From Escherichia coli (lineage in GTDB: Bacteria; Pseudomonadota; Gammaproteobacteria; Enterobacterales; Enterobacteriaceae), in NCBI RefSeq assembly GCF_003334335.1, contig NZ_QOWQ01000014.1: a stretch of DNA of 64,000 bases; one strand, written 5' to 3'. Shown here in pieces: positions 3,214-3,395 of the stretch. The translations under genes were made by a program, and so were the position numbers. The stretch's first letter is position 1. Every line of letters begins with the position of its first letter. Below the pieces are notes generated by a model. The model saw nothing but the letters and a program-made list of their open reading frames with translations. It was not told where the DNA came from and ran no database searches.

Positions 3214-3395
3214 CAGCCGTTGCCTGATGCGACGCGTAATGCGTCTTATCAGGCCTACAGTGAACAGAACCGTAGGTCGGATAAGGCGTTCACGCCGCAT
3301 CCGACAGCCGTTGCCTGATGCGACGCGTAATGCGTCTTATCAGGCCTACAGTGTACAGAACCCCAGGGCGGATATGGCGTTCACGCCGCATCCGA
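3214..3395. repeat. BIME: two tandem copies of a 91-bp unit, each containing REP palindromes
   Basis: Copy 1 is 3214..3304 and copy 2 is 3305..3395. Both begin cagccgttgcctgatgcgacgcgtaatgcgtcttatcaggcctacagtg and differ at a few positions. Classic REP stem gcctgatgcgacgc / gcgtcttatcaggc. Confidence 0.8.

Follow-up and report, generated by a model that had tools for sequence, protein, structure and literature searches.

What is the 91-bp sequence that stands twice, head to tail, between trmJ and iscR in a genome of Escherichia coli, how does the number of its units change, and could that number matter to the genes on either side? The locus lies in a 64,000-nt stretch of E. coli DNA (contig NZ_QOWQ01000014.1), referred to here as the window. 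A preliminary description had reported a tandem duplication of a 91-bp REP-containing unit at 3214-3395, with a few substitutions between the copies. Tandem Repeats Finder gave one array, 3213-3397, with 2.0 copies of a 91-nt period and 94% matches, free of indels (score 335), and a repeat finder gave 95% identity between unit A (3213-3303) and unit B (3304-3394). The two programs agreed on the head-to-tail duplication, and the reported interval corresponds to 3213-3394 with the phase off by one base. The substitutions numbered five, at 3263 (A in unit A, T in unit B), 3272-3273 (GT/CC), 3277 (T/G) and 3284 (A/T), all confined to the linker and to the second palindrome on its 5' side. The chance of at least 86 matches in 91 positions is 2.3e-45 per register, and approximately 8e-38 once all positions and periods of the window are allowed for; a chance origin of the 91-bp repeat can be excluded.

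Structure and classification of the repeat

The following features were located in and around the array.

3211-3213, plus strand: trmJ stop codon TAA, the last base of which is the first base of the repeat
3213-3303, plus strand: BIME-2 unit A (91 bp), in which a 13-nt linker joins a Z2 iREP to a Y REP whose 5' GTAG is intact; delimited by the repeat finders, with GTAG motifs on opposite strands
3220-3258, minus strand: Z2-type REP of unit A, GTAG-first on this strand, with the stem of the REP325 Z2
3272-3306, plus strand: Y-type REP of unit A (GTAGGTCGGATAAGGCGTTCACGCCGCATCCGACA), GTAG-first on this strand
3304-3394, plus strand: BIME-2 unit B (91 bp), consisting of a Z2 iREP as in unit A and a degenerate Y REP (GTAG changed to CCAG, one stem pair lost)
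3311-3349, minus strand: Z2-type REP of unit B, identical in sequence to that of unit A
3363-3397, plus strand: degenerate Y-type REP of unit B, without GTAG
3275-3346, plus strand: Y-linker-Z2 module across the A/B junction, matching Rfam naRNA4 (RF02564) with 72.2 bits against a gathering score of 59.5
3441-3490, plus strand: two sites that we take to be the IscR type-1 operators of the iscR promoter

The trmJ gene occupies 2473-3213 and iscR 3574-4062, in agreement with the RefSeq annotation of identical loci, and the array is extragenic, lying past the trmJ stop codon (3213) and ahead of the iscR start codon (3574). It had been placed between trmJ and the iscR promoter, and this was confirmed by its position between the stop codon at 3211-3213 and the presumed IscR operators. 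The latter were identified by their motif, with two matches against zero expected by chance; they lie 43 nt beyond the end of the array, in a block (3441-3490) conserved across the spacers of Enterobacteriaceae. No intrinsic terminator, that is, a GC-rich hairpin followed by a T run, was found on the plus strand in 3214-3573, and the sequence past the last hairpin reads ACAACAGGTACAAACG. The array was accordingly rejected as an intrinsic terminator, there being no plus-strand hairpin with a T run between trmJ and iscR. A hairpin in the iscR 5' UTR (3538-3552, CCCCGGGCAGGGG), with an A/T run beside it, scores as an intrinsic terminator on the minus strand; many Enterobacteriaceae conserve it in the spacer between trmJ and iscR.

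Each unit contains two palindromes. The sequence of the left palindrome (3220-3258 and 3311-3349), in the minus-strand reading that puts GTAG first, is GTAGGCCTGATAAGACGCATTACGCGTCGCATCAGGCAA; in plus-strand reading, the Z2 of unit A is an iREP bearing TGCC↓TGAT and CC↓TAC. GTAG-first copies begin at 3272 on the plus strand and at 3258 and 3349 on the minus strand. The marks of a REP are GTAG at the 5' end and, after it, an imperfect palindrome whose stem has a mismatch; this arrangement was found in three of the four palindromes and was absent from the Y palindrome of unit B. Folded as RNA hairpins, the Z2 sequence gave -21.4 kcal/mol, the Y of unit A -18.8 and the Y of unit B -14.6, the last being weaker because GTAG has become CCAG and one stem pair has been lost. 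The linkers are 13 nt (from the CTAC to the GTAG side) within a unit and approximately 7 nt between units. They are of the short kind (S and s, l or r), not the long L linker that binds IHF, and the IHF consensus had no match in 3213-3397.

The palindromes were compared with those of REP325 of strain MG1655, in which the motifs are labelled Y and Z2 (PMC4550694). The stem of the REP325 Z2 is identical to that of the left palindrome, only the loop being different, and one stem pair, compensated, and one base of the loop distinguish the REP325 Y from the right palindrome. A BIME-2 consists of Z2 and Y REPs lying in inverse orientation with short linkers between them, in tandem copies the number of which varies between strains (PMC3333891). 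All of these were observed here, namely the Z2 and Y composition, inverse orientation, short linkers, strain-variable tandem number and extragenic position. The earlier designation of the repeat as REP-containing units forming a BIME was therefore correct and can be made more exact: it is a BIME-2, in which the unit is a Z2 iREP plus a Y REP and not one REP.

The repeat is already known, both in kind and as a locus. It is catalogued as "BIMEs2 2662088-2662353", 265 bp, "<iscR-<yfhQ" (PMC6379681, sheet DS3). The catalogued element and that of the window occupy the same locus and share alternating Z2 and Y REPs, short linkers and tandem units at the 3' end of a gene. They differ in that the K-12 references have three units and the window two, none of them different in kind, and in that the terminal Y REP of the window is degenerate, lacking GTAG and having a weaker stem. 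As a whole, the feature is very probably best explained as a two-unit (A-B) allele of the known iscR-trmJ (yfhQ) BIME-2.

Related arrangements were distinguishable from it. REP325 (naRNA1-6, yjdM-yjdN of MG1655) is likewise a BIME-2 of Y and Z2 hairpins in the 3' UTR of a gene, but has a 100-bp period, approximately six units (12 hairpins) and longer linkers, compared with 91 bp, two units and 4 hairpins in the window; in addition, the gene downstream of the window array has its own regulated promoter, unlike the case of REP325. BIME-1 (Y plus Z1; also RIB/RIP) also has two inverted REPs, one of them Y-type, but occurs in single copy and its long linker contains an IHF site, whereas the window array has the long Z2 partner, linkers of 13 and approximately 7 nt, and tandem units. 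A REPtron, with a tnpA_REP (RAYT) gene flanked by REPs or BIMEs, was not found, the neighbours being suhB, trmJ, iscR and iscS with no transposase; the array is a dispersed BIME, not a REPtron. Elsewhere in the window, within 10640-10740, a minus-strand Y REP with its GTAG at 10672 and a short plus-strand Z-type REP (10707) face each other, and a single hybrid REP was observed at 47701 (47701-47740).

Unit number in E. coli and the site in related species

Copy number had been described as strain-variable, with a comparison across E. coli genomes proposed as a check. In 5,426 complete E. coli genomes it varied from one to four units: one unit in 2646 genomes (~49%), two in ~666 (~12%), three in ~661 (~12%) and four (A-A-A-B) in ~14 (~0.3%), with another element at the site in ~1439 (~26.5%). 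Queries consisted of n units plus flanks, such that 80% coverage in one place was reached only by genomes with n units or fewer.

1-unit query: 2646 genomes at 80% coverage
2-unit query: 3312 genomes at 80% coverage
3-unit query: 3973 genomes at 80% coverage
4-unit query: 3987 genomes at 80% coverage

The 1-unit query was used with 60-nt flanks; with 100-nt flanks it did not resolve one unit from two, since pieces overlapping by less than about half were joined in the search. A systematic sample drawn with the flanks only agreed with the census, its 59 intact loci comprising 28, 6, 10 and 0 with one to four units, respectively, and 15 with the alternative element. To call the locus a duplication is thus an understatement, since the window carries a minority allele, a single unit is the commonest state of the locus, and K-12 has three. 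The alleles found in individual strains were as follows.

MG1655, W3110, BW25113 and DH10B: A-A-B, spacer 451 bp
The window and MC1061: A-B, spacer 360 bp
126096: B alone, spacer 269 bp
ST131 and many others: one diverged unit, spacer about 269-270 bp
O169:H41: two units, left halves more diverged, spacer 360 bp
O157:H7: unrelated 119-130-nt element, trmJ one codon shorter, spacer 300 bp
KMi029: A only
ML35, NCTC9080 and others: A-A-A-B

Unit A is identical in sequence to units 1 and 2 of MG1655, and unit B to the last unit of MG1655 and to the sole unit of strain 126096. The four-unit genomes included thirteen perfect or near-perfect A-A-A-B arrays, those of ML35 and NCTC9080 among them. That the window is K-12 with a recent deletion was rejected, as it differs from K-12 by 3-5 SNPs per 11-17 kb.

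Several alleles stood apart. In O169:H41 strain 2014EL-1345-2 (locus L011, 300-520), the first unit has the leader ACAGTGGT and the Z2 loop TTAAC typical of single-unit alleles, and the second is B-like, which suggests an older duplication or a recombinant between allele classes. In approximately one quarter of E. coli (O157:H7, O55:H7, O26:H11 and others), the BIME is replaced at the site corresponding to 3208-3397 of the window by a GC-rich dispersed repeat of 119-130 nt (755-885 in locus L004). This repeat is boxC-like, is present at a median of 15 places per genome, and takes over the last trmJ codon, so that the gene ends in ...GCC TGA and is 738 nt long. In P276M (L012, NZ_CP044293.1), the annotation makes suhB and trmJ pseudogenes, frameshifted or partial, and iscR was unmatched, a pattern that looks like a low-quality assembly rather than biology.

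Among laboratory strains, three units were observed in MG1655, W3110, BW25113, DH10B, C600, J53 and BL21-AI, and two in MC1061 (NZ_CP195014.1). Four were observed in TOP10 (NZ_CP080620.1), XL1-Blue, XL10-Gold and Stbl4 (NZ_CP081007-9), and in BL21(DE3) (NZ_CP081489.1), Rosetta2 and BL21-RIPL. The two- and four-unit counts conflict with the Sanger references, which have three units, and the four-unit laboratory assemblies all come from a single accession series, so that they may reflect true change or an artefact of assembly; these data do not establish that unit number changes rapidly in the laboratory.

Scanning the genomes of species representatives for a DNA pattern yielded 120 loci, with trmJ directly upstream of iscR in 112, and none of these 112 had a tandem array between the two genes. 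In E. albertii the corresponding position is occupied by a single Z2-Y unit with GTAG intact, which points to an old element and a later expansion into an array in E. coli. A single unit supplying the trmJ stop codon would thus have been at the site since before the E. coli/E. albertii split. REPs of their own directly follow trmJ in Salmonella enterica subsp. arizonae, Citrobacter, Enterobacter and Pluralibacter; in Pseudocitrobacter the element is boxC-like and resembles that of the O157 allele; and other representatives have a bare spacer of approximately 150 nt. The 3' site of trmJ is a recurrent landing place for small repeats.

Fifteen distinct unit alleles were compared for conservation of the palindromes. 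The stems were paired in 97.8% of cells, and one stem pair was fully compensated (C-G to U-A in four alleles). Variable columns made up 13 of 48 in the stems and 23 of 47 outside them (Fisher p = 0.035). Covariation support for the stems was weak, as 20 of 500 shuffles reached the observed score. Strand-specific (RNA-level) selection, as judged from G-U-compatible substitutions, was considered, but the counts (approximately 8 compatible versus approximately 4 incompatible transitions) are too small to support it.

Gyrase cleavage, RNA hairpins and possible function

At the DNA level, the three-unit allele of the array has been shown to be a gyrase target in vivo. In W3110, the iscR-yfhQ element had 3 gyrase cleavage sites with ciprofloxacin, 6 with rifampicin plus ciprofloxacin, 0 with microcin B17 and 4 with oxolinic acid (PMC6379681); sheet DS3 of the same study has 263 BIME-2 rows, most of them with zero sites. 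These data come from the three-unit allele of W3110, not from the two-unit one. Beyond gyrase cleavage, no locus-specific literature on trmJ/iscR read-through, REP, VNTR or MLVA was found, and no transcript data for the trmJ-iscR array were found in the literature.

At the RNA level, the four stable hairpins would form the 3' end of the trmJ message and would block 3' exonucleases, and they would attenuate read-through toward the iscR promoter. Attenuation is proposed because no intrinsic terminator is present: with no hairpin and T run after trmJ on the plus strand, the message ends in no strong structures other than the REP hairpins. By analogy with other BIMEs (REP325), the hairpins would most likely serve to stabilize the trmJ mRNA or to attenuate read-through, and each additional unit would add hairpins and widen the gap between the genes.

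The best experimental model for the function of the window array is REP325, to which a 2026 preprint ascribes partial Rho-dependent termination and mRNA stabilization. In that work, fragments of REP325 with 2-4 hairpins were not Rho-sensitive and the full array was needed, so that a two-unit array may attenuate little; genome-wide, REP effects depended on context. In the supplements of the preprint, iscR appears only in a differential-expression table. REPs situated less than 16 nt past a stop codon lower translation of the upstream gene, according to the work of Liang, Rudd and Deutscher (2015) as summarized in PMC12306157. The first hairpin stem of the array (3222) begins 8 nt past the trmJ stop codon, within the <16-nt range given in that summary. 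Alleles of every copy number share this distance, and a stop-proximity effect would therefore not be altered by the duplication itself.

Two RNA conformations were compared over 3220-3349. In the minimum free energy fold of arrays with at least two units, Z2 pairs with the Z2 of the next unit in a long duplex enclosing the Y hairpin (-88.9 kcal/mol), compared with -76.2 kcal/mol for four local hairpins. A single-unit allele lacks the Z2-Z2 duplex.

It is possible, if rather unlikely, that the array has no cellular function and is a selfish or neutral repeat in a permissive spacer, its copy number following neutral drift. One unit, several units and an unrelated dispersed repeat are all common in healthy lineages, and in related genera the site is empty or holds other REPs. 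The unit is also far more polymorphic than its flanks (36 of 95 columns variable, compared with about 5-6%), and reported effects of REPs on expression are variable and context-dependent. On the other hand, the palindromes are better conserved than the linkers and one pair is compensated, a single unit has been retained from before the divergence of E. albertii, the array is cut by gyrase in vivo, and trmJ has no other terminator.

Change in unit number and remaining alternatives

Neighbouring units are identical over a left tract of 50 nt (3213-3262) and a right tract of 22 nt (3285-3306), and adjacent A units over all 91 nt. The alleles observed were B, A, A-B, A-A-B and A-A-A-B; A-B-B was not seen in the sample. 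From this allele pattern we infer a mechanism of recombination or slippage. One unit would have been duplicated within one E. coli lineage, after which unequal homologous exchange or replication slippage in the identical tracts would let unit number drift between 1 and 4. Misaligned exchange or slippage in the left tract of A-B would produce A-A-B and B, and exchange in the right tract A-B-B and A.

Alternatively, TnpA_REP (RAYT) may build and resize the array, with homologous recombination or slippage not being the cause; we consider this improbable. The enzyme binds a REP with 5' GTAG, cuts the neighbouring iREP and the linker at CC↓T sites, and can join BIME pieces, and it makes BIME recombination products in vitro (PMC3333891). 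Each unit on the plus strand has the layout of the in vitro substrate, a Y REP with GTAG preceded by a Z2 iREP that bears TGCC↓TGAT and CC↓TAC, and unit A has both the GTAG and the stem mismatch required by TnpA_REP, beside an iREP with CC↓T cleavage motifs. Amplification by the enzyme would give a similar pattern because unit A, the amplified one, has an intact GTAG, whereas the terminal, non-amplified B has CCAG. GTAG status is no clean separator of the units, however, since the minus-strand Z2 GTAG is kept in both A and B. Furthermore, exchange within identical tracts explains the allele series fully, both deletion products (A only and B only) exist, no tnpA_REP gene adjoins the locus, and no evidence of TnpA_REP-driven amplification in vivo was found in the literature. 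Recombination or slippage is therefore preferred.

A bolder reading is that unit number acts as a strain-specific dial, in which each additional unit, by adding a gyrase target and two hairpins directly upstream of the promoter under IscR control, would shift local supercoiling and/or trmJ read-through and with them the set-point of isc (Fe-S assembly) expression. We hold this to be quite improbable. If it were true, the 1-, 2-, 3- and 4-unit and replacement alleles would be functionally different regulatory variants, not neutral length polymorphisms.

It is highly implausible that the Y-linker-Z2 module across the junction is expressed as an naRNA4-like nucleoid-associated RNA that condenses the chromosome with HU, in which case the duplication would have created a new RNA gene copy. 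naRNA4 was described originally in PMC4550694; the match, which takes in the Y of unit A and the Z2 of unit B, exceeds the gathering score, and such matches appear only with at least two units. Their number is the unit number minus one, being 0 with one unit, 1 with two and 2 in MG1655. Nevertheless, the Rfam covariance model was built on one Y-linker-Z2 unit of REP325 and in effect models one BIME-2 unit; the match consequently shows shared anatomy, not shared function. In addition, the 2026 preprint, with an author of the original paper, reported no measurable nucleoid compaction by REP325/naRNA4 and no stable ternary complex. Other Rfam matches above the gathering score in the window were the iscRS stability element (4063-4172, between iscR and iscS), ryfA (11547-11850), IS128 RNA (11982-12190) and sroE (25019-25110).

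That the region encodes a small protein can practically be dismissed: the open frame at 3179-3433 (84 aa, TTG start) overlaps the end of trmJ out of frame, had no match to protein families (best 14.6 bits against a cutoff of 540), is unannotated in the RefSeq records examined, and is 49, 84 or 76 aa long with 1, 2 or 3 units, 91 not being divisible by 3, with a shifting C-terminus. The earlier judgement that this ORF is spurious is thus borne out by the lack of family match and annotation and by a frame not conserved across copy-number alleles, and the protein-coding reading was rejected for want of a family and for a frame that changes with unit number.

For annotators, the 182-bp repeat and the ORFs through it represent a standard BIME-2, neither a gene nor an assembly error. 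Spacer lengths of 269, 360, 451 and 542 bp, or 300 bp with the alternative element, are legitimate between strains and differ even between laboratory-strain assemblies. If unit number altered trmJ 3' ends, gyrase loading or transcription into the iscR promoter, the locus would be a simple natural case of REP-based tuning of an important operon.
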